Part shown: piece after piece, positions 24,238 to 37,953 of the stretch | How positions within the stretch are numbered: position 1 is the first letter of the stretch | How the letters are laid out: each line of letters begins with the position of its first letter | NCBI GenBank assembly: GCA_963771175.1 | Contig: CAVYSY010000044.1 | Location: forward strand, 32,001-96,000 | DNA: 64,000 nucleotides | Direction: 5' to 3' | Source: an uncultured delta proteobacterium | GTDB lineage: Bacteria > Myxococcota > Myxococcia > Myxococcales > Myxococcaceae | Made by a program: the position numbers and the translations under genes | The notes under the pieces: model-generated | Told to the model about the DNA's origin: nothing | The model's input: only the letters and a program-made list of their open reading frames with translations | Database searches by the model: none

Positions 24238-24440
24238 GCCCCAAGCCTGGGGTGGCTCCTGGCGCGCGTCAATCGCCCCCGCCCGCTGCCTCAGCAAGTG
24301 TCGGGCCGGACACCCCAAGCCCCTGGCTCCGAGCGGAAGGCGCTCGCGGCCAGCTCCGGCTCCGTCTTCACCGTCTCTGTTCGCGGACGCCTCCGGTAGC
24401 GCCTCTCGCCAGCCGCCGACAGGGGCCGTAGGAGGTTAGC

Positions 24441-24572
24441 GAGAGGACGTACCAGGGCCCGAGCATGTCGATGAGAGCGGGCGCTCCAGCAGGTCCTCGG
24501 ACTCACGCCGCTCGGGGCGCGAAGAATCGCGCCCGGAACTGCTCCAGTGGGGTGGTCCAGTGGTCCTCCCAC
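24441..24572 (-). pseudogene. Decayed remnant of the YwaF/Coq4 gene pair
   Basis: 24496-24572 matches 30366-30442 (6 mismatches in 77); 24441-24475 matches 29726-29766 with a 6-bp gap. Confidence 0.8.
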
Positions 24573-24581
24573 TCCCGGGAA

Positions 24582-24603
24582 GGTGTCGGAGGATTCGAGT
24601 CGC
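24582..24603. repeat. Degenerate copy of the RAYT left REP end
   Basis: GGTGTCGGAGGATTCGAGTCGC versus GGTGTCAAAGGATTCGAATCGC (19/22), preceded by GGGAA as at the 562 and 1058 copies. Confidence 0.7.
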
Positions 24604-24768
24604 CGGACAACTCCTTGAAGCGACTGGAGGAGCCGGAGCGCCATCCGCCTGGAATGTGTCGGTGGACCCGAAGACCAACAGGACGGGAGGGCTCTTGAGC
24701 GAGCCTTCCCGGCCCAGTTGGGCAATGCTTGGAAGCATCCCATGCCCCACCCCAACTGGCTCGACTCC

Positions 24769-25394
24769 ATGAAGCCGGCCTTCCTCACGGGGTTCTCGGC
24801 CCTGCCGAAGCCCGAGGTGGCCCTCGTTCCCGCACTGTGCCTGCTGCTGCTGGTGCCGGTCCTGGCCCGAGCAGCCCCACCTGAAGTCGAATCCCGCCTT
24901 TCGATACTGCAGACCGTGACTGTGCGCGAACACCACAGCCCCACGCATGGCAGTGGGCTCAAGCTCACCTTCAAGCGCCTCCCGCCAGACCCGCTCCTGG
25001 CACGTTTCACGAGGGAGGAAGCGAGGGCATTCGTGGAGGCCATGGAGACGGCATTCCATGCGCCCGGGTTGCTGTCAGGGTCGCCCGCCGCGAGGAGATT
25101 GCCGACGTGTGTGGTCTCGGGAGCCATGGGCTGTGGCCCGCCGGCGAGCACGCACTCCTCGGACCTGGAGAGGAAGCTGCGCGCGGACTACGAGGAACTC
25201 TTCGGCCCTTCCTCGCTACCGCTGCCGTCCTCCCTGGAGAGCAGCCGATGGTTCCAGGCACTCAAGCTCTCGCCCCGCTACATGGACGAGGGCGCGCGCG
25301 AGGCCGCCATGGAATTGCTCGGCTCTCCCACCGTCGCATATTCCATGGCCCTGTCCATGATGCTGTACATGGCGGCGTGGGCCGCGCCGGAGCC
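24769..25394 (+). pseudogene. AHH-nuclease polymorphic toxin, 5' part (interrupted)
   Basis: Signal-like N-terminus; ends ...LYMAAWAAPEP, which continues in frame as VFSK at 28249. Confidence 0.8.
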
Positions 25395-25409
25395 TGCATT
25401 GAAACACCT

Positions 25410-27755
25410 CTATTCCTTGGAATGGGGGTGACTTCGGTGATGTTGCCTGGGACTGCGTGCGCTGCTTCTTCGGGCGAGGGCCGCCTTGAGGCGCCGCGCG
25501 AGGGCGGGGGTCAGCCGGAAGCAGAAAGAGCCCTTCGGCAGGTCGCGCTCGGGCGTGAGGACGTGGGTCTTCACCCAGTAACGCACCGTGCTCTCGGAGA
25601 CTCCGTACTTCTCGATGAGCCCACGGGTGGTGTAACGGCCATCTGGGAGACGCGCTGGCAACCGCGGGCGGCCAGAGAAGCCCGGCTGCTTCCCGGGTCT
25701 GTAGCCATGGCTCTGCGCGTTGGCCAGCAGCGCTTCCAGTTCGGGCGTCAGCTCGAACCAGAAGGGACCTCGCTTCTTGCTGCGCGCCGGTGTGATGCGC
25801 CCCTGCCTTATCCAGTAGCGGACCATCGGAGCCGATACCCCGTAGCGCGCTGTCAGGCCATGCATGGAATAACGTCCTTGCTCATCTCGCTCGGGCAAGG
25901 GCCCAGTTCGCCCCCCAGGACCATGTCCTGCTCGGATGCCATGTCCCCGGCGAAGCGCCCCCACCGTCGTGCTCTTGAAGGAGCGACCCAGGCCGTTTTT
26001 CAGGCCGAGCCGGTTGAGTTCAGCCGCTATCCGCGAGTCGCTGTACTTCCGAGCAGCCATCCTCCGGACGGCGGCGAGCACTGTCTTCGACGTCTTGTGG
26101 GAGTCCGCCAGGGTGGGTCGAGGTGCCAGCAATTCGCTGATGGCACCTGTCTTCCAGAGAATGCGAATGCGGGTTGCTCGCTCAGGCACGTCCACTGGAG
26201 AAAGCACGACATCCTGGATGAGGAGTCGAAGCATCCGCTTCTTGTCCACGGCTGCCGTGGTGGGGGCGTTCCACAGCCTCGGCAAGTCTCGAGCCAACGC
26301 GAGGATGCCTTTCTTGTCCTGTGCCGAGAGCTCGAGCTTCTGCCTGCCTTTGGCCTCCTCGTACGCATGCTCCACCTGAGCAAGCTCCTGGAGTTTCTCG
26401 TTCCAACGTGTCTCCAGCGTGCGTGCCACTATCCGGTTTTCCGGCTCGACAGCGTTGTACTGGCGCTCGGCACGCTGGGCCTCGTAGCGCGCGCGCTCCA
26501 GACGCAGTTGCCATTGCCGAGCCAGGCTGTCGGCCTGCCGCTCCACCTCCTTGAGCACGGCGAGCGAAAGGTCCAATTCGGGCGGAGCCATCGCCTGGAG
26601 AAAAAGCTCAACCACCTTGTCGTCAATGCGATGCGCAACGGTGGACCAGCAGGGGCCTTCGCCGTACGCGGTCCGCAGGCACTCGTAGACAGGGGTATTG
26701 GCATGGGGGAGGCTCGTGTACATCCGCCGTCCACACCTGCCACAGAGGACAAGTCCCTGCAGCAACGCCTCGCCATTGCGAGCCGCACCGCGCTTGTGGA
26801 CTCCATGGAAGCGGATTCCATTCTCCTCTATTCGTCTCAGATTCTCCGTATATTCCTCCCAGGAGATGTACGCCGGGTGGGCATCCCTCACGAAGGCGTG
26901 CCACTGCTCGGACGCAGCGAGCCGCTCATGCTTGCTCCGCACCTCTCCCTCCACCAGGACGCGTCGTTCGCGATTGCGGCCCCATACGTAGGCCCCCGCG
27001 TAGGTGGGATTGCGCAGAATATTCAGCGCGTGCTCGGTGGTGAGTGGATGCCATTGGATTTCGGCGTGGCCGCCGCGATGGGCATGTCGCGAGGGAAAGA
27101 GCAGCCCGTGGTGGTTGAAATAGCGTACGGCGCGAGCCACACTGCCATCCAGGCGGAAGCGCTCGAACAGGAGGCGGATGGCTTTCTGTACCTGCTCGTC
27201 CGGGTCGAGCACGAGCGCGCCATTGTCGAAGACATAGCCTGTTGGCGCGGGGTAGACGAGCTCGCCTTTCTTCGCCTTGTGCAGCAGCCCTCCGCGCAGC
27301 CGCTGGCGCATGAGGTGAATCTCGGCGTCGCTCATGGTTCCCTTCATGCCGAGCACCAACCGGTCATTGAAGTCGCTGGCATCGTAGACGCCCTCCTCAT
27401 CGATGATGAGCGTGTCGGCCAGCGCGCACAGGTCCATCAACCGGTGCCAGTCGGCCGAGGAGCGCGCCAGGCGCGACACCTCCAGCGAGAAGATGGCACC
27501 CACCTTGCCAAGACTGACGTCGGCGGCCAGTCGCTGGAAACCCGTGCGGTGCGCGGCACTGGTGCCACTCTGGCCGAGGTCCTCATCGATGACCTCTATG
27601 TGGGCGCTGTCCCAGCCAAGCTTCTTGGCGAGCTCGACCAGTGCGTACTGCCGCTCGGTCGACTGCTGGTGCTCATGGACCTGCATCAGGGTGGACTGGC
27701 GGATGTAAACCAGCGCCGGCCTGTCCAGGTGCTCGGACCGAACCTTCTCGCTCAT
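25410..27755 (-). CDS. Large serine recombinase (resolvase + recombinase + Zn ribbon + tandem C-terminal HTH), 781 aa
   Basis: VYIRQST (catalytic Ser), EDLGQSG, EVSRLARS, ILRNPTYAG, CGRCG...YEC...C. Confidence 0.93.
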   Translation of the reverse strand: MSEKVRSEHLDRPALVYIRQSTLMQVHEHQQSTERQYALVELAKKLGWDSAHIEVIDEDLGQSGTSAAHRTGFQRLAADVSLGKVGAIFSLEVSRLARSSADWHRLMDLCALADTLIIDEEGVYDASDFNDRLVLGMKGTMSDAEIHLMRQRLRGGLLHKAKKGELVYPAPTGYVFDNGALVLDPDEQVQKAIRLLFERFRLDGSVARAVRYFNHHGLLFPSRHAHRGGHAEIQWHPLTTEHALNILRNPTYAGAYVWGRNRERRVLVEGEVRSKHERLAASEQWHAFVRDAHPAYISWEEYTENLRRIEENGIRFHGVHKRGAARNGEALLQGLVLCGRCGRRMYTSLPHANTPVYECLRTAYGEGPCWSTVAHRIDDKVVELFLQAMAPPELDLSLAVLKEVERQADSLARQWQLRLERARYEAQRAERQYNAVEPENRIVARTLETRWNEKLQELAQVEHAYEEAKGRQKLELSAQDKKGILALARDLPRLWNAPTTAAVDKKRMLRLLIQDVVLSPVDVPERATRIRILWKTGAISELLAPRPTLADSHKTSKTVLAAVRRMAARKYSDSRIAAELNRLGLKNGLGRSFKSTTVGALRRGHGIRAGHGPGGRTGPLPERDEQGRYSMHGLTARYGVSAPMVRYWIRQGRITPARSKKRGPFWFELTPELEALLANAQSHGYRPGKQPGFSGRPRLPARLPDGRYTTRGLIEKYGVSESTVRYWVKTHVLTPERDLPKGSFCFRLTPALARRLKAALARRSSARSPRQHHRSHPHSKE

Positions 27756-28210
27756 CGCCTACCTCGCGTCGGCTGGGGGAGGGCCTTTCCAGCGCCTTCA
27801 GCAGCACGCTGGCCAGGACGCCGAGCCACTCGTGCTTCATCGCCTCTGGTAGTACGGCGTAGAGTGCGCCGGGGGGGCCCACCTGGGGTGGGCTCCCGGA
27901 GCCGCTTGTCTGCCGGGCTGGCTTCTTGGCCCTTCCCATCGGTGCTGTTGCTTAGGTCATCAATGAGCGCGCGTAGCTCGCGCAGTGCGCCCGGGTGCAG
28001 CTTTGGACACTTCCCACCAGCCTTGAGCGGCGCTGCCCGGGGGCGCAGGTTGGTCCAGTCAACAGGGAGGACCGCCGGATGCCCATCCGGGAAGAGGACG
28101 TTGACACAAGGGCGGCCGAGCTTGCGCTGGTATCCCAGCAGCGCTAGCTCGCGGCCTTCGAACGGATGGAGCGGGTGGGTGATGCGCACCGAATCTAACG
28201 GCGGCTGCAT
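27752..28210 (-). CDS. Recombinase-associated small protein (DUF5372/Y4bD-like)
   Basis: VRITHPLHPFEG...LPVDWTNL; ATGA overlap with the recombinase start. Confidence 0.65.
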   Translation of the reverse strand: MQPPLDSVRITHPLHPFEGRELALLGYQRKLGRPCVNVLFPDGHPAVLPVDWTNLRPRAAPLKAGGKCPKLHPGALRELRALIDDLSNSTDGKGQEASPADKRLREPTPGGPPRRTLRRTTRGDEARVARRPGQRAAEGAGKALPQPTRGRR

Positions 28211-28248
28211 CCATGACGGGGTATTTTGGAGATGGGCTTCCCCGAGCC

Positions 28249-29028
28249 CGTCTTCTCCAAGTCGTTCGCCGGGGCAGTGACCCTCTGGCTGTTGATGACA
28301 TACACGGCGACGGAACTCTACACCGTGGGGAGGGCCTGCCTGGAGTTGTACCGCGAGGCAGAGGCAGCGCGGAGCGAGGAGCAGTTGGAGGCGGTAGCCG
28401 CACGCTTTGGCAAGGCGATAGGAGGCGTAGGACTACGGGTGCTGGTGACAGTGGCAGGCGCAAAGCTCGCCAGCGCTCTGCCGGAGGTGCCCAAGGGAGG
28501 GATGTGGGCACGCCTCTCGCCTCCACGCTTTGCTTTCACGGGTGGGGGCGCCCGAATGGCTTTACGGTGGGGGCGGGCACACGTGCACAGGTGACCGTGG
28601 CCGACGGAACGGTGGTGCTCATGGGGGTCACGGCGGCGGCCGCGGCCAGTGCGGTCGTCAAGGCCCGGACAACGGGGGCCTGCGCCGAGTCCAAGAAGGA
28701 CGACAACCAGGCACACCATATCGCCACGGACAAGAATGACACGTCGGAGGTCAGCGGTGGCCCCTGGACGCCCCGGTTCAAGGCACTCTTCGAACGGGCC
28801 GGGATGAGCCTCGACGATCCGGCGAACATCCTCTACCTGCAGAACCACAAGGGTCCTCACCCCGAAGATTACCACGCGGAGGTCTTCAACCGGCTTCAGG
28901 ATGCGCTCGAGGACTGCCAGACTCAGCGAGAGTGCAGACGTAAACTCATGGACGCTCTGGATGAAATCGCAGGTGAGCTTTGCACACCTGGGTCAAGACT
29001 CCACAAGCTCGCCACGAAGACACGATGA
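28249..29028 (+). pseudogene. AHH-nuclease polymorphic toxin, 3' part (additional frameshift near 28545)
   Basis: QAHHIATDKN...GGPWTPRF...HKGPHPEDYH (AHH HNH/EndoVII-fold nuclease). Confidence 0.85.
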
Positions 29029-29603
29029 GCGCTCAAAGCAGACACTTCGAACTGCGGGACGACATGAGTCTTCCTGGCCGTTGGGTCTTGAAGCACGCCA
29101 GTCTCGATGATCAGGGCCGGCGACTGGACCCGTGGCAATTCAAGAGGGGAACGTCCATCACCTTGGAGGGAAAGCCCATCCTTGGCATCGCTCACCCCGG
29201 GCAGCCGCTCGATTTCAGCCTGACCGAACTGGCAACGCCCGTGGTCACCCAGCGCGTTGTCGCGCTCTTCGAGCGTCTGGGCCTCCAACAGGAGGTCCAG
29301 TCCATCCCGGCGCAAGTGGAGGGCTGTACGGAGCCCTACTTCATCCTCAATGCCCTGCGGGTTCTCCGGTGCATCGACGAGGCCCGGTGCGAGGAGGTCA
29401 AACTCTGGGAACCCAGGCACGGGGACCCCAACAGGGTGGGCGAGTATCGCAATGTCGTTGGAATGAAGGTCGACCCGAAGAAGATAGGGGATACCCACAT
29501 CTTGCGTCCCTGGGGTTGGAGGGGAGCGCTCATCGTCTCGGAGCATGTGAAGCAGGCCCTGGAGCAGGAAGGCATCACCGGGACGAAATTCATCGAGGTC
29601 TGA
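29025..29603 (+). CDS. Immunity protein (Imm11/DUF1629-like)
   Basis: ATGA overlap with the toxin stop; GRW...LDPWQF...PLDF...YFILN...CIDE...LIVSEHVK. Confidence 0.82.
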   Translation: MSAQSRHFELRDDMSLPGRWVLKHASLDDQGRRLDPWQFKRGTSITLEGKPILGIAHPGQPLDFSLTELATPVVTQRVVALFERLGLQQEVQSIPAQVEGCTEPYFILNALRVLRCIDEARCEEVKLWEPRHGDPNRVGEYRNVVGMKVDPKKIGDTHILRPWGWRGALIVSEHVKQALEQEGITGTKFIEV

Positions 29604-29631
29604 CCCCGTGGGACCGAGCGGAGGCGTTCCC

Positions 29632-30363
29632 TCATCGCCTCCGGCGCCCGGACCCGGCCAGCCAGTCCTTGAGGGCGATGGGCAGGTAGAGGACGACGAG
29701 CGTGGCGAAGCCCACGCCGACGAGGGAGAGGATGTACCAGGGCCAGGGCCCGAGCTCGTCGATGAGCGAGGGGAAGTCCGGCCTGCGCCCGATGAACAGG
29801 TAGTTGCTGCCGAGCAACAGGTTCAGTCCGAAGATCGCCGCCGTATACGCGAGCATCCAGCCCGCCACGCGCCACAGCGAGCCCCACGTCGGTCGGAAAC
29901 CCTCCACCACGGTGAAGTAGACGCCGGTGGTGATGATCCCCCCGTGAACGCTCATGGAGGTGAAGAAGTACAGGTGCGGGTAGCCGTAGATGCCGACGTT
30001 GGACGTCACCAGCGCCTGGAGCGCGCCGCCGATACCGAGGAAGTAGATGAACTCGTAGAGCAGCCGGCTCCGCGTCAGCAGCAAGGCGATGCTGAGCAGG
30101 GCGGTCAGGTCGCACAGGTGAAGGGGGAGATCAACGCGGACGTCCCAGAGTCCGACCAGCACTCGCCACACGGCGTGCGCGCCGAAGCACACGGAGATCA
30201 GGGCCGCCAGCCCGAGGCGGAAGGCGCGGCGCCCCGCATCGCCCAGCACGCTCCGCAGCGGAACGAGCGCCACGTTGACGGCCAGTACGATTCCCAGCAC
30301 GACGAGGTGCGGAGGAGCGAACATCTTGAACTCCATCCCCTCCGGGTGGGCGCTGAAGTCCAC
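29632..30363 (-). CDS. YwaF/TIGR02206 family membrane protein
   Basis: LPLHLCD, GSNYLF, LGPWPWYI; multiple TM segments. Confidence 0.85.
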   Translation of the reverse strand: MDFSAHPEGMEFKMFAPPHLVVLGIVLAVNVALVPLRSVLGDAGRRAFRLGLAALISVCFGAHAVWRVLVGLWDVRVDLPLHLCDLTALLSIALLLTRSRLLYEFIYFLGIGGALQALVTSNVGIYGYPHLYFFTSMSVHGGIITTGVYFTVVEGFRPTWGSLWRVAGWMLAYTAAIFGLNLLLGSNYLFIGRRPDFPSLIDELGPWPWYILSLVGVGFATLVVLYLPIALKDWLAGSGRRRR

Positions 30364-30372
30364 GTCTCGGAC

Positions 30373-31056
30373 TCACGCCGCTCGGGTCGCGAAGAACCGT
30401 GCCCGGAGCTGCTCCAGCGGGGTGGCCCAGTGGTCCTCCCACAGGACACTCGCCATCTCCGGCGAGCTCCTGCCCCGCTGGTACGCGGTGCGAATCCGCC
30501 GCAGGTACTCGCGCTTCGGTACCGTCACCTGCTCGTTGCTCCACCCCGCGAACACCGCGAAGAGCGAGGTGGGGGTGCCCAGGTTCCCGAACTGGAACGC
30601 CTGCAGCTCCATCTCCCCCAGCATGTCCGTGCCGTAGCCGGTGAGCAGGTGGTGGAGGTCATGGCTCTCGCGCATGCGCTTGCCGAGGTACTGGCCATCG
30701 CTCATCTCGCGCGCGAGGGTGAAGATGGGCTCGACGCCCGGGTTGCCCTCGTAGAAGCGCGCGAACTCGCGCCCGAGCGTCCCCGGGGGCAGCTTCGCGA
30801 GCGCCTCGAAGTCCACATGGCCCCTGCAGAGCTCGGGGCGCTGCCCCAGGAGGCGGCGGCCCGCGGGGAGCTTCGCGAACCCCCGGGCCATGGAGGCCAG
30901 CTTGCCGCCGTCGAGCGCGTCCTGGAACAGCATGCCGTAGACGGGCTCGGCGGGGTTGCGCATCAGCACCCGGACGGAGAGGACCCCCACCCGGAGGCGG
31001 GTGAAGAGGGAGGCGTTCGGGGGAAGCGACGGGTACTGCGAAGCACGCTGCTCCAT
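30373..31056 (-). CDS. Coq4 family protein
   Basis: LPPGTLGREF; HDLHHLLTGYGTDMLGE (HDxxH...E). Confidence 0.85.
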   Translation of the reverse strand: MEQRASQYPSLPPNASLFTRLRVGVLSVRVLMRNPAEPVYGMLFQDALDGGKLASMARGFAKLPAGRRLLGQRPELCRGHVDFEALAKLPPGTLGREFARFYEGNPGVEPIFTLAREMSDGQYLGKRMRESHDLHHLLTGYGTDMLGEMELQAFQFGNLGTPTSLFAVFAGWSNEQVTVPKREYLRRIRTAYQRGRSSPEMASVLWEDHWATPLEQLRARFFATRAA

Positions 31057-31245: not shown

Positions 31246-32805
31246 ATGCGTGTCTGGCTTCGTGTGGCGTGGGTCTGTACCCTGGTGGTGGGATGCGGTG
31301 GACCACTCCCGGAGGAGTCGCCTCCGGAAGAGCCCTCGCAAGAGGTCACCTCGGACGAGGGCGCTCCGGACGAGGTGTCCGAGCTGTGGAAGAAGCCGCC
31401 GAGGCTCGGCACGCCCTTCCTGGTGGAGGACATCTTCCCGCCCCCTTCAACGCCCCCAACCTTTCCCATCCTGGGGCCTCTGCCCACGAACCTGGTGGAC
31501 TTCCGGGGGACGCTCTTCTTCGCGGCCAACGGCAACGCGCTCGGGGCGTCGGCGCTGTGGCGCAGCGACGGCACGGCCCCCGGTACCTTCCCGGTGGGCG
31601 AGCCCGAGGCTCCCGGCTCCGTCGGAGAGCTGCTCGTCGTGCGGAACCGGCTCTTCTTCACCGCGAGCGATGCGGCCCACGGCTCCGAGCTCTGGGTGAG
31701 CGACGGCACGTCCGCGGGCACCCGGTTGCTGAAAGACATCACCCCGGGCTCCGAGGACTCGACGCTGGGGGCCTTCACCCGGGTGGGAGACACGCTGTTC
31801 TTCTCCCGTCGGCTCCCGAGCGACCCGCCCGGCGAGGAGCGCCTCGAATTGTGGAAGAGCGACGGCACCCGGTCCGGCACGGTGCGCGTGAAGGAGCTGG
31901 GCCCGGGCTTCATCCTGTTCAACACGGCAGCGCTGGACGACGACACGCTCTTCTTCGTCTTCAATGATGAGGCGCACGGCGTCGAGCCGTGGGTGAGCGA
32001 TGGCACCTCCCGGGGCACCCGGCTCCTGAAGGACATCGTCAAGGGCCCCGACAGCTCGTTCCCGGACCGCCCGACGCCGGTGGACGGCACCCTCTACTTC
32101 TCCGCCGAGGACCCGGCCCACGGGCGCGAGCTGTGGCGGACGGACGGCACCACCCGGGGCACCGAGCTGCTCGAGGACACCGTGCCAGGCCCCACGGGCT
32201 CGGGTGCGCAGCCCATCGCCCTGTTCAAACGGCGCCTCTACTTCGTGACCTTCGACACCGCGGACCGAGGGGCGCGGCTGCGCAAGCTCAACCCGGACCC
32301 CACCTGCCGTCCGCGCTCGACCGTCGTCGAGGACCTGCCCAACCCCTTCCCGGACCGCCCGGAGGTGGAAGCCTTCCTGCCCTCCGGCGGCGTCGCCGAG
32401 GTGAACGGCAGGCTGCTCTTCACCCTCGCCTACTCCACCTCCGGGCCCGCGCTGGCGGACGTGCAACTCTGGGCCACCCGAGGCACCCGCTCGACCACGG
32501 AACTGCTGCGCCGACGGCTGCTCAACGCCATCGACGTCCCCACCACGACGCTCGCCGCCGTGAACGACCGGCTCGCCCTCTTCGCCGCCGCGGACGACGA
32601 GCACGGTCAGGAGCCGTGGGTGACCGATGGCACGCCCAGGGGCACCCGGCTGCTCGCGGACATCCGCCCGGGTGGCAGCTCGTCGTTCCCGATCGAATTC
32701 ACGCGCTCGGGCGACTTCATGTTCTTCGCCGCCAACGACGGCATCCACGGCCACGACCTGTGGGCCGTTCCCGTCGAGGACAGAGCACACCGGAACGGAC
32801 GCTGA
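31246..32805 (+). CDS. ELWxxDGT repeat lipoprotein
   Basis: Lipobox VVGC; repeated [24 protein letters not shown]. Confidence 0.92.
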
Positions 32806-32852
32806 GCGGGGACTCTCGGAGGACAGGACCCCCCTCCGGGCTCGGTCTGGAG

Positions 32853-32879
32853 AAACCTGTCCGACAGTCGGACAGGTTT
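32853..32879. repeat. 27-bp palindromic intergenic repeat, copy 1
   Basis: AAACCTGTCCGAC-A-GTCGGACAGGTTT inside a longer CCGGGCTCGG...CGCGCCCGGG unit. Confidence 0.9.
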
Positions 32880-33002
32880 TTTGAAAGCGCGCCCGGGAGG
32901 TGTCCCGCATTCTCCCAGCAGGGCGACTCAGCGAGGCAGGTACTTCTTGAAGGGGCCCCGGCATCCGAGGGCTCGGCCTCGCGAATCCTCCCGGCCCGAG
33001 GC

Positions 33003-34651
<1,649 letters not shown>

Positions 34652-34752
34652 GCGGCGAATCTACCGCCGCGAGCGCGGCCGTGAGGGCCCTTGTTTTCGC
34701 CAAGTGTCGCCTCGGTCACGAGTCCGGGGCGGTGCGTGGCGAACGCCTCGCG

Positions 34753-35268: not shown

Positions 35269-35736
35269 ATGAAGCTCTCCGCCCCGGTTTCCGTGGATGA
35301 CTCGCTCTGGCCGCTGGTCATCGTCCATCTGGTGGGCACCGCGTCCCTGGCGGACTTCGAGGCGTACCTGGAGAAGCGCCTCGAGTTCCTTCGCCGGGGC
35401 CAGCCGCACCTCGTGGTGGTGGTCGTGGACGCATCGCGGGGCATCACGATGCCCACCGAGCATCGTCACAAGCAGGTGGAGTGGTTGAGCCGGCACGAGG
35501 AGCTCATCCGCCAGACGCTGCTCGGCGTGGCCTACGCCACGGACTCGGCCCTCTTCCGGCTGACCCTGAGCCTCGTCTTCCACATCAAGTCGCCCGCCTA
35601 CCCGTACGTCATCATCCCCAGCCAGGAGCTGGCCGTGGCGTGGGCGGCGAGCCGGCTGGACGAGGCGGGCCTGCACGCGGACGCCGAGCGCATCCGCTAC
35701 CACTTCGGGCCGCTGCACCACCGGAGCCATGCCTAG
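35269..35736 (+). CDS. Hypothetical protein (STAS/SpoIIAA-like)
   Basis: [10 protein letters not shown]...VVVDAS...LLGVAY pattern typical of myxobacterial proteins. Confidence 0.65.
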
Positions 35737-35810
35737 GGTCCGCCCGCGCGTCCGACACCACGCCTTTCCCGAATGGCCCCTATACTGCGCGTCAGGGGGT
35801 ACTCCACCAC

Positions 35811-37077
35811 ATGAGCAGCAAGCGCATCCTCGGCAAGCGCATCCTCGGGATGATTCTCGCGGGGGGTCAGGGCACGCGCCTGGCTCCTCTGACGTCCAAG
35901 CGCTCCAAGCCGGCCGTCCCCTTCGGGTCGAAGTTCCGCATCATCGACTTCGCCCTCAGCAACTTCGTCAACTCGGGCGTCTACTCCATCTACGTGCTGA
36001 CGCAGTTCAAGGCGCAGTCGCTCACCGAGCACATCCAACGCGGCTGGCGCTTCGGCTCGGGCCTGCTCGACGACTACTTCATCACGCTGGCGCCGGCGCA
36101 GATGTACCTCTACGAGGAGCTGGGCAACGTCTGGTACCGGGGCACGGCCGACGCCATCTACCAGAACCTCCATCTGGTGGAGAACTACCGCGCCGACGAC
36201 GTGGCCATCTTCTCGGGAGACCACATCTACAAGATGAACGTGGCGCACATGCTGGAGCAGCACGAGGCCCAGCGCGCCGACATCACCATCGCCGCCTACC
36301 CCACGCCGGTGGCGGAGGCCTCGCGCTTCGGCGTCATGCAGGTGGACGAGCGCAGCCGCGTGCTCGAGTTCCAGGAGAAGCCCCAGGAGCCCAAGGCGAT
36401 GCCGGGCAAGCCGGGCATGGCCCTGTGCAGCATGGGCAACTACATCTTCAGCCGGCAGCGTGCTCACCGAGTTGCTGGAGGTGGACGCGCGCACCGAGGG
36501 CTCGCAGCACGACTTCGGCAAGGACGTGCTGCCGCGGGCGCTGCGCGACGGCTACCACATCCACGCGTACGACTTCCAAACCAACCCCATCCCCGGCCAG
36601 ACGCGGCCCAACACCTACTGGCGCGACGTGGGAACGCTGGAGGCCTACCACGAGGCCTCGATGGACCTCGTCTCCATCAACCCCGAGTTCGACGTCTTCA
36701 ACCCGGAGTGGCCGCTGCGCAGCGCCGTCGAATACAGCCCCCCGGCCAAGTTCGTCCACGAGGCGGGCGAGCGCGTGGGCCGCGCGCTCAACTCCATGGT
36801 GGCCGGCGGCTGCATCATCTCGGGCGGCACGGTGCGCGAGAGCATCCTCTCCCGCCGGGTGCGGGTGAACTCCTACGCGCTGGTGTCGCGCTCGGTCCTC
36901 TTCGACGAGGTGGACATCGGCCGGCACGCCCAGGTGAAGAACGCCATCATCGACAAGGGCGTGCGCGTGCCGCCCGACACGAAGATTGGCTTCGACCTGG
37001 CGGCCGACAAGGCGCGCGGCTTCACCGTCACCGACAACGGCATCGTCGTGGTGCCCAAGGGCTACAAGTTCGACTGA
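35811..37077 (+). CDS. glgC: Glucose-1-phosphate adenylyltransferase (frameshift near 36455)
   Basis: [38 protein letters not shown]; second frame HDFGKD, YWRDVGT. Confidence 0.92.
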
Positions 37078-37083
37078 GGCCGC

Positions 37084-37130
37084 ACGGAGGCGGGCTCCTG
37101 GCCTCGCGAGGGGCCGGAGCTCCGCCTACC
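37084..37130. terminator. GC-rich hairpin between convergent glgC and protease genes
   Basis: AGGCGGGCTCC...GGAGCTCCGCCT imperfect stem; no U tract. Confidence 0.4.
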
Positions 37131-37953
37131 GCAGCGTCACCTCGCGCGCCTCCGGGTAGCGCACCTGCTGCTTCTTCATCTGCCCGGCGATGACGGCGAA
37201 GACCTCGTAGACGCGCTTCCGCGTCACCGGCAGCACCACCCTCGGGCCCGTGCCCACCATGGTGCCGTCCACGAAGACCGGCACGCCCTCGGGGGCATTC
37301 ACCACCAGGCACTCGCAGGCCCCCGCCAGCGTCGACAGCGCCTTGCGCGCCACGTCCATGCCGATGCCGAAGTTGATGGCGCTCGCCCCTTCAATCCCAG
37401 CGGTGACGATGCCCACCACCGTCCCCCGCCAATCGAAGATGGGGCCGCCCGAGTTGCCCGGGTTGAGCGGTATCTGCGTCTGGAAGACGGGGCGCTCGGC
37501 GCCGTCCGGGTAGATGTTGGACACCATCCCGCTGTTGAACGTCCACACCGCGCCCCGGCCGTGGCCCACCGCCCCCACCCAGCTCCCCACCCGCACGTCC
37601 CCCACCCCGCCCAGCGGCGGCACCGGCGTGTCCTTCAGCGGCACCCGCACCAGCGCCACGTCCACCTCCTTCGCGCCCCGCTCCACCACCGTGCCCTGCA
37701 CCTTGCGCCCGTCGTGGAGCACCACCTCCACCTTCTCGCGCCCCTCCACCACGTGGGCGTTGGTGAGCACCAGCCCGTCCGTCCCCACGAAGAAGCCGCT
37801 GCCGAAGCTGTCCCCCTTCGAGATGAACACCACGCTCGGCGTCACCTTCTCGAAGAGCGCCTGCTGCTGGCGCTCCATCGCCAGCAGTGCGTCCTCCTCC
37901 GCCCGGGCCGCGACGGACAGCCCCAGCACGAGCGCGACGAGCAGGTGCCTCAC
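37126..37953 (-). CDS. Trypsin-like (S1C/HtrA-type) serine protease
   Basis: [27 protein letters not shown] overlap with the upstream gene. Confidence 0.9.

Follow-up and report, generated by a model that had tools for sequence, protein, structure and literature searches.

Why does a small recombinase element lie inside the reading frame of a toxin gene? The question is raised by a stretch of 64,000 nucleotides (G000:C44:32001-96000, hereafter the window, G000 being the source assembly), in which an element of 2,854 bp between its cores splits the gene of a SitA5-like toxin with an AHH nuclease domain; the Imm11 immunity gene that follows is intact. An initial annotation had offered two answers, a recombination-controlled toxin switch or an element directed at a motif conserved across a multicopy toxin family. 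The evidence set out below makes it likely that we are dealing with a selfish, insertion-sequence-like element that uses the Pro-Glu-Pro (PEP) codons of many SitA5-like toxin genes as a landing pad, and not with a programmed switch. The G000 assembly comprises 9.8 Mb with 69% GC, is 82% complete and holds 40 matches to the SitA5 escort model (NF050093). Throughout, C numbers denote contigs, L numbers denote loci of relatives and X1-X7 denote the contig sets of read runs.

Structure of the element and its junctions

Both junctions were found where the initial annotation had placed them, with cores 2,854 bp apart. The left junction core (attL, CC at 25387-25388, plus strand) provides the first two bases of the first proline codon of PEP, while the right junction core (attR, CC at 28241-28242, plus strand) follows an element arm that rebuilds the PEP frame; one X1 contig ends exactly at 28242. 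Removing the element in silico gives ...AAPEPVFSK... in frame, as had been claimed. The left arm P' (25389-25412) and the right arm P (28217-28240) are imperfectly inverted to each other, and the circle junction would have the predicted form of an imperfect inverted repeat, with 11 of 24 positions matching as assembled (a value reached by 636 of 20,000 shuffles) and 13 of 24 when base 28228 is left out (77 of 20,000 shuffles). This G is missing from the covering contigs of runs X1, X2, X3 and X6, and one X5 contig ends there without the gap. Because the base is absent from the covering contigs of four runs, it is probably an assembly insertion, and the true length of the element is probably 2,853 bp.

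The proposed core, GAGCC, did not hold. In the group of elements with a CC core, the CC is identical at both ends (26/26 left and 25/25 right ends, with C32 placed by hand), while the base that follows is G in 25 of 26 left ends and C, G, A or T in 16, 5, 2 and 2 of 25 right ends. Sister elements carry TG (G092, L051), TT (G094) or TC (G009) at the same register and at both ends. Since the +1 base differs between left and right ends and the dinucleotides of the sisters match at both, the crossover core is CC, the first two bases of the first proline codon, and GAGCC is ruled out. A single pair of ends (G013 C72/C28) has its +1 bases swapped, which would fit a crossover further to the right and does not fit cleanly to a CC core.

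In the open reading frame and domain scan, a recombinase frame and a DUF5372 frame took up the interior, with no relaxase or mobilisation gene and no cargo. The recombinase (25410-27755, minus strand, 781 aa) belongs to the large serine class: its Resolvase, Recombinase and zinc-ribbon domains (PF00239, PF07508 and PF13408) all score above cut-off, and Y17, R19, S21 and C338/341/359/369 are invariant in six clade members. The domain scan found no DUF4368 in it. Two MerR-like helix-turn-helix units lie at its C-terminal end (25410-25900), at residues 637-660 and 708-739, and in most relatives at 40-50% identity the alignment stops near residue 690. The recombinase of L046, from Archangium violaceum, is 94% identical to that of the window; together with the SitA5 escort matches this marks the host as a myxobacterium. 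The wider family counts 2,522 representatives at E <=1e-30, other serine recombinases included. No relative was found among viral contigs, and no sigma-70-like promoter or terminator-like site was found in 24400-29800.

Target choice across relatives

The ends of the element were sought in 208 genomes of the family, with few candidates scored per genome, and were present in 12, a patchy distribution. The resulting set of CC-core sites (n=28; 26 left ends and two sites known through the right end only) comes from nine genomes and two metagenome contigs; it excludes G068:C430, which has no flank. The recombinase alignment leaves out two frameshifted recombinases of G017, and the distant loci L006, L007, L009 and L026 were set aside because the position of their left ends was uncertain. 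SitA5-like genes hold 24 of the 28 sites. The initial annotation had asked whether homologous elements insert at the same APEP codons of other AHH toxin genes; these 24 take the PEP codons of SitA5-like genes, while the four remaining sites lie elsewhere. Two of them are in a DUF4230 gene and a PA14 gene, one is in non-toxin DNA of G017, and the last, in G009, is a remnant some 320 bp long. Of the two original proposals, targeting of a multicopy toxin family is strongly supported, three of the sites being in G000 itself, while the recombination-controlled switch is not supported.

The three G000 copies, in the window, C32 and C39, lie at the PEP codons of three toxin genes that differ in their C-terminal domains; those of C32 and C39 are 96% identical to each other and 73% identical to that of the window. 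Similar elements sit in related genes of the AHH subfamily in G012 and G013, and many of the other targeted genes are canonical SitA5. G012 alone has six left ends of the window's own lineage, and its ends fall in one PA14 gene and in five SitA5-like genes whose local identity to L104, an uninterrupted homologue, is 41-77%. When 26 sequences were scanned, all 17 SitA5-hitting halves broke at position 180-183 of NF050093.

At the DNA level, GA at +2/+3 and CC at +5/+6 are invariant in 25 of 25 target arms. A TAC at -21, which in the window is a tyrosine codon (25366-25368, plus strand) and is likely part of the recombinase recognition motif, is conserved with T, A and C in 24, 24 and 23 of 26 left arms. 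The same TAC is also present in the DUF4230 target and, in another lineage, in targets hit in antisense, which points to recognition at the level of DNA. In G000, 27 of 6,297 CCNGARCC sites lie in SitA5-like frames, three of them occupied, and the extended motif TAC-N18-CCNGARCC occurs at 51 sites, including 13 empty SitA5-like sites and the three left junctions. An empty site at G000:C30:250527 (minus strand) resembles the DUF4230 target used in G005 and matches the full motif, making it a predicted landing site outside the toxin family.

Sister lineages, as read from their sequences, have changed both core and target family. Those with TG sit in DUF6310 genes, and those with TT, TC or TG in another, nuclease-like family. 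The TT/TC target family has no Pfam or NCBIfam match, and our reading of it as a restriction-nuclease-like toxin follows from a motif recognised by eye. In a tree of 19 recombinases (first 465 aa, basal forks open), the TG/DUF6310 and the TT-TC-TG/nuclease-like lineages are placed within or next to the CC/SitA5 lineages. More distant relatives, with identities of about 50%, use a kinase HRD motif or another position of DUF6310-type genes, and some distant targets may be IS91-like.

The nearly identical recombinases of G009, G094 and L051 carry TC, TT and TG, respectively, and in each case the dinucleotide agrees between the two ends and with the codon of the paralogue that was hit. L051 lies between a nuclease-like toxin gene and a VapC/PIN gene, as would be expected after recombination between copies or an adjacent deletion.

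Evidence for transposition

Identical copies of elements were found at different loci in G092 (two) and G094 (three), and G017 has two copies with two differences between them. Runs X2, X3 and X6 contain almost identical right ends that continue into other PEP sites. Damaged copies also occur, a stop in G090:C29 and a remnant in G009:C116 among them. The third, G000:C32:65085-67926, has lost 10 bp of its left arm, including the orphan ATG described below, and has a stop inside the recombinase match, and is probably immobilised unless this is assembly noise. A loose end at 25394 in two X1 contigs was considered as proof of excision and rejected; it represents an allele with an empty PEP site, and since its 3' letters are not those of the window, it belongs to a related gene.

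These observations bear on the idea of a domesticated, regulated switch like skin or fdxN, in which a host signal (starvation, contact or sporulation) would trigger excision and arm the toxin. Such a switch would be in keeping with a frame that precise excision would restore, with a frameshift that is probably an error, with the intact immunity gene and with the similar elements in AHH-subfamily genes of G012 and G013. We nevertheless regard it as very improbable, because the targets are many with no single fixed one, the distribution is patchy, the close relative G011 lacks the whole toxin segment, identical elements are present in several copies, and off-target and damaged copies exist; in addition, the recombinase scores 94.4 bits against the XisF equivalog model, whose cut-off is 375.

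A different alternative accepts the selfish origin and holds that stochastic excision and insertion are now selected, as phase variation or as barcode shuffling, so that clonal cells would gain or lose the toxin, and perhaps the immunity, while recombination between copies would swap toxin 3' halves. The common break position of all scanned SitA5-hitting halves means that such swaps would stay in frame, the frames at empty sites are open, three separate lineages chose toxin-like families, and the metagenome copy L051 is flanked by two unrelated genes. This alternative appears distinctly unlikely given that no more than 3 of the 27 SitA5-like sites of PEP type in G000 carry an element and that few of the family genomes have ends at all, that no chimeric SitA5 has been demonstrated, and that related lineages use kinase and non-toxin targets.

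Integrity of the interrupted toxin gene

The 5' half of the toxin gene (24742-25388, plus strand) has an uncertain start, at TTG 24718, ATG 24742, ATG 24769 or GTG 24817. It encodes a signal-peptide-like hydrophobic stretch ending in A-R-A, without a lipobox, and its last 69 aa are 83% identical to L104. The 3' half (28241-29028, plus strand) encodes the rest of the SitA5-like escort region (NF050093 182-258) and the AHH nuclease (PF14412), and lacks one base near 28556. A restart of this half at ATG 28232 was rejected, as the codon is TTG or TTT in other lineages and is not conserved. The immunity gene (29025-29603, plus strand) is intact, as had been claimed, with its start overlapping the toxin stop (ATGA); both AHH and Imm11 (PF07791) score above their cut-offs.

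The restored toxin had been put at about 470 aa. It is in frame, and provided that one more base is present near 28556, the possible starts give lengths of 452-485 aa (468 aa for ATG 24769). The closest paralogue in G000, on C25, aligns across the empty site, and all seven homologues compared need a net change of +1 (modulo 3) around 28538-28582. One X1 contig (depth 5.6) carries a C behind 28556 together with an in-frame gap of 108 bp, and because of this gap it represents a related allele, not necessarily this strain. The assembly of G000 is rich in indels: over 1.87 kb of pgm, at least 12 single-base indels separate it from its 91%-identical orthologue in G011, three other aligned stretches having few or none, and frameshift claims in G000 consequently need reads. 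In the pgm/glgC stretches (32717-34703 and 35481-37193), glgC also looks frameshifted. We consider it very likely that the frameshift is an assembly error, as the initial annotation had required for a switch, at about 28556 and not at 28545; if so, precise excision would restore the window toxin.

Alternatively, the toxin could be a pseudogene, with a real frameshift near 28556 and a lost lipid anchor, and excision would restore nothing functional. The assembly does lack a base present in 7/7 homologues, the sole contig with the extra base is the related allele just described, and the subfamily has no lipobox. Yet the indels of the assembly, the intact recombinase and the uninterrupted subfamily members in three other genomes, which are full length with the same type of N-terminus, make such a dead end most unlikely.

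On its sequence, the window toxin belongs to a divergent, SitA5-like AHH subfamily that departs from SitA5 in two respects. It probably acts much as a SitA5 does, in kin recognition, and may be delivered by TraAB-dependent outer membrane exchange. It does not reach the cut-off of NF050093, the uninterrupted subfamily members scoring 58.6-64.6 bits against 160 and covering profile positions 134-258 only, and inspection by eye of the window toxin and four homologues found an A-x-A-type signal and no lipobox cysteine. The subfamily, with the C-terminal half of the SitA5 escort, the A-x-A-type signal and no lipobox, is widespread (L102, L104, L106 and G000:C25).

The toxin cassette itself looks recently gained. 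A direct repeat of about 96 bp (87.5%) at 24479-24572 and 30348-30442 brackets the toxin, immunity and TMEM164 genes, at the syntenic position G011 has neither the toxin segment nor the Uma2 gene next to it, and an X1 contig skips 29612-30370.

A split start for the DUF5372 gene and a proposed transposition cycle

The body of the DUF5372 gene (27752-28210, minus strand) lies directly upstream of the recombinase gene, its stop overlapping the recombinase ATG, and encodes 152 aa from an internal ATG at 28208-28210. Its Pfam score of 21.7 bits is just under the cut-off of 25; PF17342 was found in 3 of 5 homologues, and the Atlas value is 0.94. The model of the protein, with a predicted local distance difference test (pLDDT) of 67.5, has four strands and a helix, and its fold had no match in the PDB at E <=0.001. 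A second open frame (27673-27939, minus strand) covers the tail of DUF5372 and the start of the recombinase gene and is a possible third gene; in 17 of 18 loci both frames are open over some 55 codons just ahead of the recombinase, and the second has a conserved helical leucine pattern seen by eye, the remaining locus lacking the region.

At the far end of the element, an orphan Shine-Dalgarno sequence (25405-25410), touched by the recombinase stop, and an ATG (25397-25399) lie on the minus strand (25397-25410). As judged from the sequence, this start would join the DUF5372 gene only in the circle. Among 17 end pairs, 16 have the ATG at -11 relative to the core, preceded at a distance of five bases by AGGT-G/A, and in 15 it is in the DUF5372 frame, the exceptions being the window, with its extra base 28228, and C32, with its loss of 10 bp. 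Two distant lineages have the same layout with the ATG at -15 and -17.

DUF5372 is predicted to be a recombinase-binding cofactor. Modelling of DUF5372 (residues 1-95) with the recombinase (residues 1-765) by ESMFold2 gave a score of 0.72, as compared with 0.00 for the best of three controls; three runs agreed in at least 91% of contacts, with a partner pLDDT of at least 76. In a benchmark whose counts are rough because our own alignments were used, 116 of the 157 solved pairs and 2 of the 215 mismatched ones attained this mark. The predicted interface comprises recombinase residues 337-366, 388-418 and 460-540, which the domain layout would place at the zinc ribbon and the base of the coiled-coil.

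We infer precise excision to a circle from established serine-recombinase chemistry as described in PMC5704250. In the cycle that we propose, the recombinase would cut the element out precisely at the CC cores, restoring the toxin frame and closing the circle. Circle closure would join the far-end Shine-Dalgarno sequence and ATG to the DUF5372 frame, and the protein would be made mainly or only from the circle. DUF5372 would then bind the base of the recombinase coiled-coil and set the recombinase for integration, and the circle would integrate at a new site resembling TAC-N18-CC-N-GA-R-CC, most often the PEP site of a SitA5-like gene. Loss of the toxin on insertion and its return on excision would be by-products of transposition and not a host programme, and the redundant SitA5-like family may have been chosen as a low-cost, likely safe landing pad and vehicle.

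The same cycle admits a bolder, and in our judgement unlikely, interpretation, in which the transposon family, specialised on the self-identity toxins of myxobacteria, is a reversible and heritable editor of social identity: insertion would silence a barcode, excision would re-arm it, and copies at the shared codon of different paralogues could swap toxin-immunity halves. Direction would here be set by a cofactor whose gene becomes complete only once the circle has been excised, which would invert the logic of known directionality factors.

Several observations weigh against a selfish element that moves through such a circle. No circle junction was found in 196 loci or 58 contigs, and neither a circle nor an excision joint in the contigs of the seven runs, which drop rare variants. 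The internal GTG (28187-28189 in the window) is conserved in 17 of 17 DUF5372 frames and could start the protein without the circle, and the Shine-Dalgarno sequence is the reverse complement of the symmetric arm motif and may be kept for binding. Empty-site frames are open in the well-assembled interrupted genes, most of which keep the downstream gene; this also fits selection for a restorable gene, and open frames are equally predicted by recent insertion. Finally, the 28 CC-core sites are not independent, owing to kinship and shared lineages, and the TAC motif was derived from the same sites that it helps to explain. On balance, we still favour the selfish, landing-pad element over a dedicated switch.

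Comparison with known systems

Tn4451/Tn4453 (TnpX) and Tn5397 (TndX) are described as having a large serine recombinase that recombines identical 2-bp sequences at several targets (PMC5704250). According to the same source, these transposons carry genes for mobilisation and resistance, show low specificity and do without a directionality factor, and a title cited there attributes a circular intermediate to them (PMC5704250). The element studied here differs in being 2.85 kb long and cargo-free, in hitting one codon of a toxin family and in having a predicted cofactor with a start across the attachment site; the relaxase or mobilisation gene and the cargo of the Tn4451 type were not found in it.

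Durrant et al. describe related recombinases that integrate into several genes around a conserved core dinucleotide, other clades that target a single conserved coding site, and a multi-targeting clade, with more than 3 target clusters for each recombinase cluster at 90% identity, in which 63% have a DUF4368 domain (PMC10083194). The word 'toxin' is absent from the main text of that paper, whose supplements may list these elements (PMC10083194). Unlike most of the multi-targeting clade, our recombinase has no DUF4368.

The fdxN element, with XisF, and skin, in sigK, interrupt genes. Both have a large serine recombinase, as the present element does, together with precise excision that restores a split gene and a small partner protein that interacts with the recombinase, two features that are predicted for the present element. 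Excision of skin is tied to one gene and one cell type (PMC5025042). Those systems have a fixed target, cell-type-specific excision and a partner that drives excision, whereas here paralogues are hit, copies multiply and the strong start of the partner would arise only after excision; instead of one target kept across a lineage, we found many paralogues and off-target sites, with element ends in 12 of 208 genomes.

A DUF5372 gene directly upstream of a large serine recombinase gene is an arrangement probably shared with the y4bA-y4bD repeats of Sinorhizobium NGR234, a name that the literature searches did not return. The myxobacterial clade differs from that type in its specialisation on polymorphic-toxin genes. 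For recombinase biology, it offers a compact system in which 28 target sites and switches of the core dinucleotide occur naturally and a predicted cofactor has a circle-supplied start.

Myxobacterial genomes carry 25-80 sitAI loci each, often on mobile DNA, and SitA toxin-immunity sets are reported to determine whether cells cooperate or kill each other (PMC8546572). By inserting into SitA-type genes with precision and, in principle, reversibly, the element would give clonal relatives a route to a change of social group; should it be no more than a parasite, it still illustrates clearly how a transposon can find refuge in a redundant family of toxins. The window toxin resembles SitA5/SitI5 (PMC8546572) in the C-terminal half of the escort domain, the AHH nuclease, the downstream immunity gene and the many paralogues, and its subfamily differs in its partial match (59-65 bits against 160, profile 134-258) and missing lipobox, other targeted genes being canonical SitA5. 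Literature searches, which took in no supplements, found no paper on such elements in SitA genes, and the primary SitA papers (2019, 2020) may mention them. Serine-recombinase transposons and gene-targeting recombinases are known already; what is added here is the targeting of SitA5-like toxin genes.

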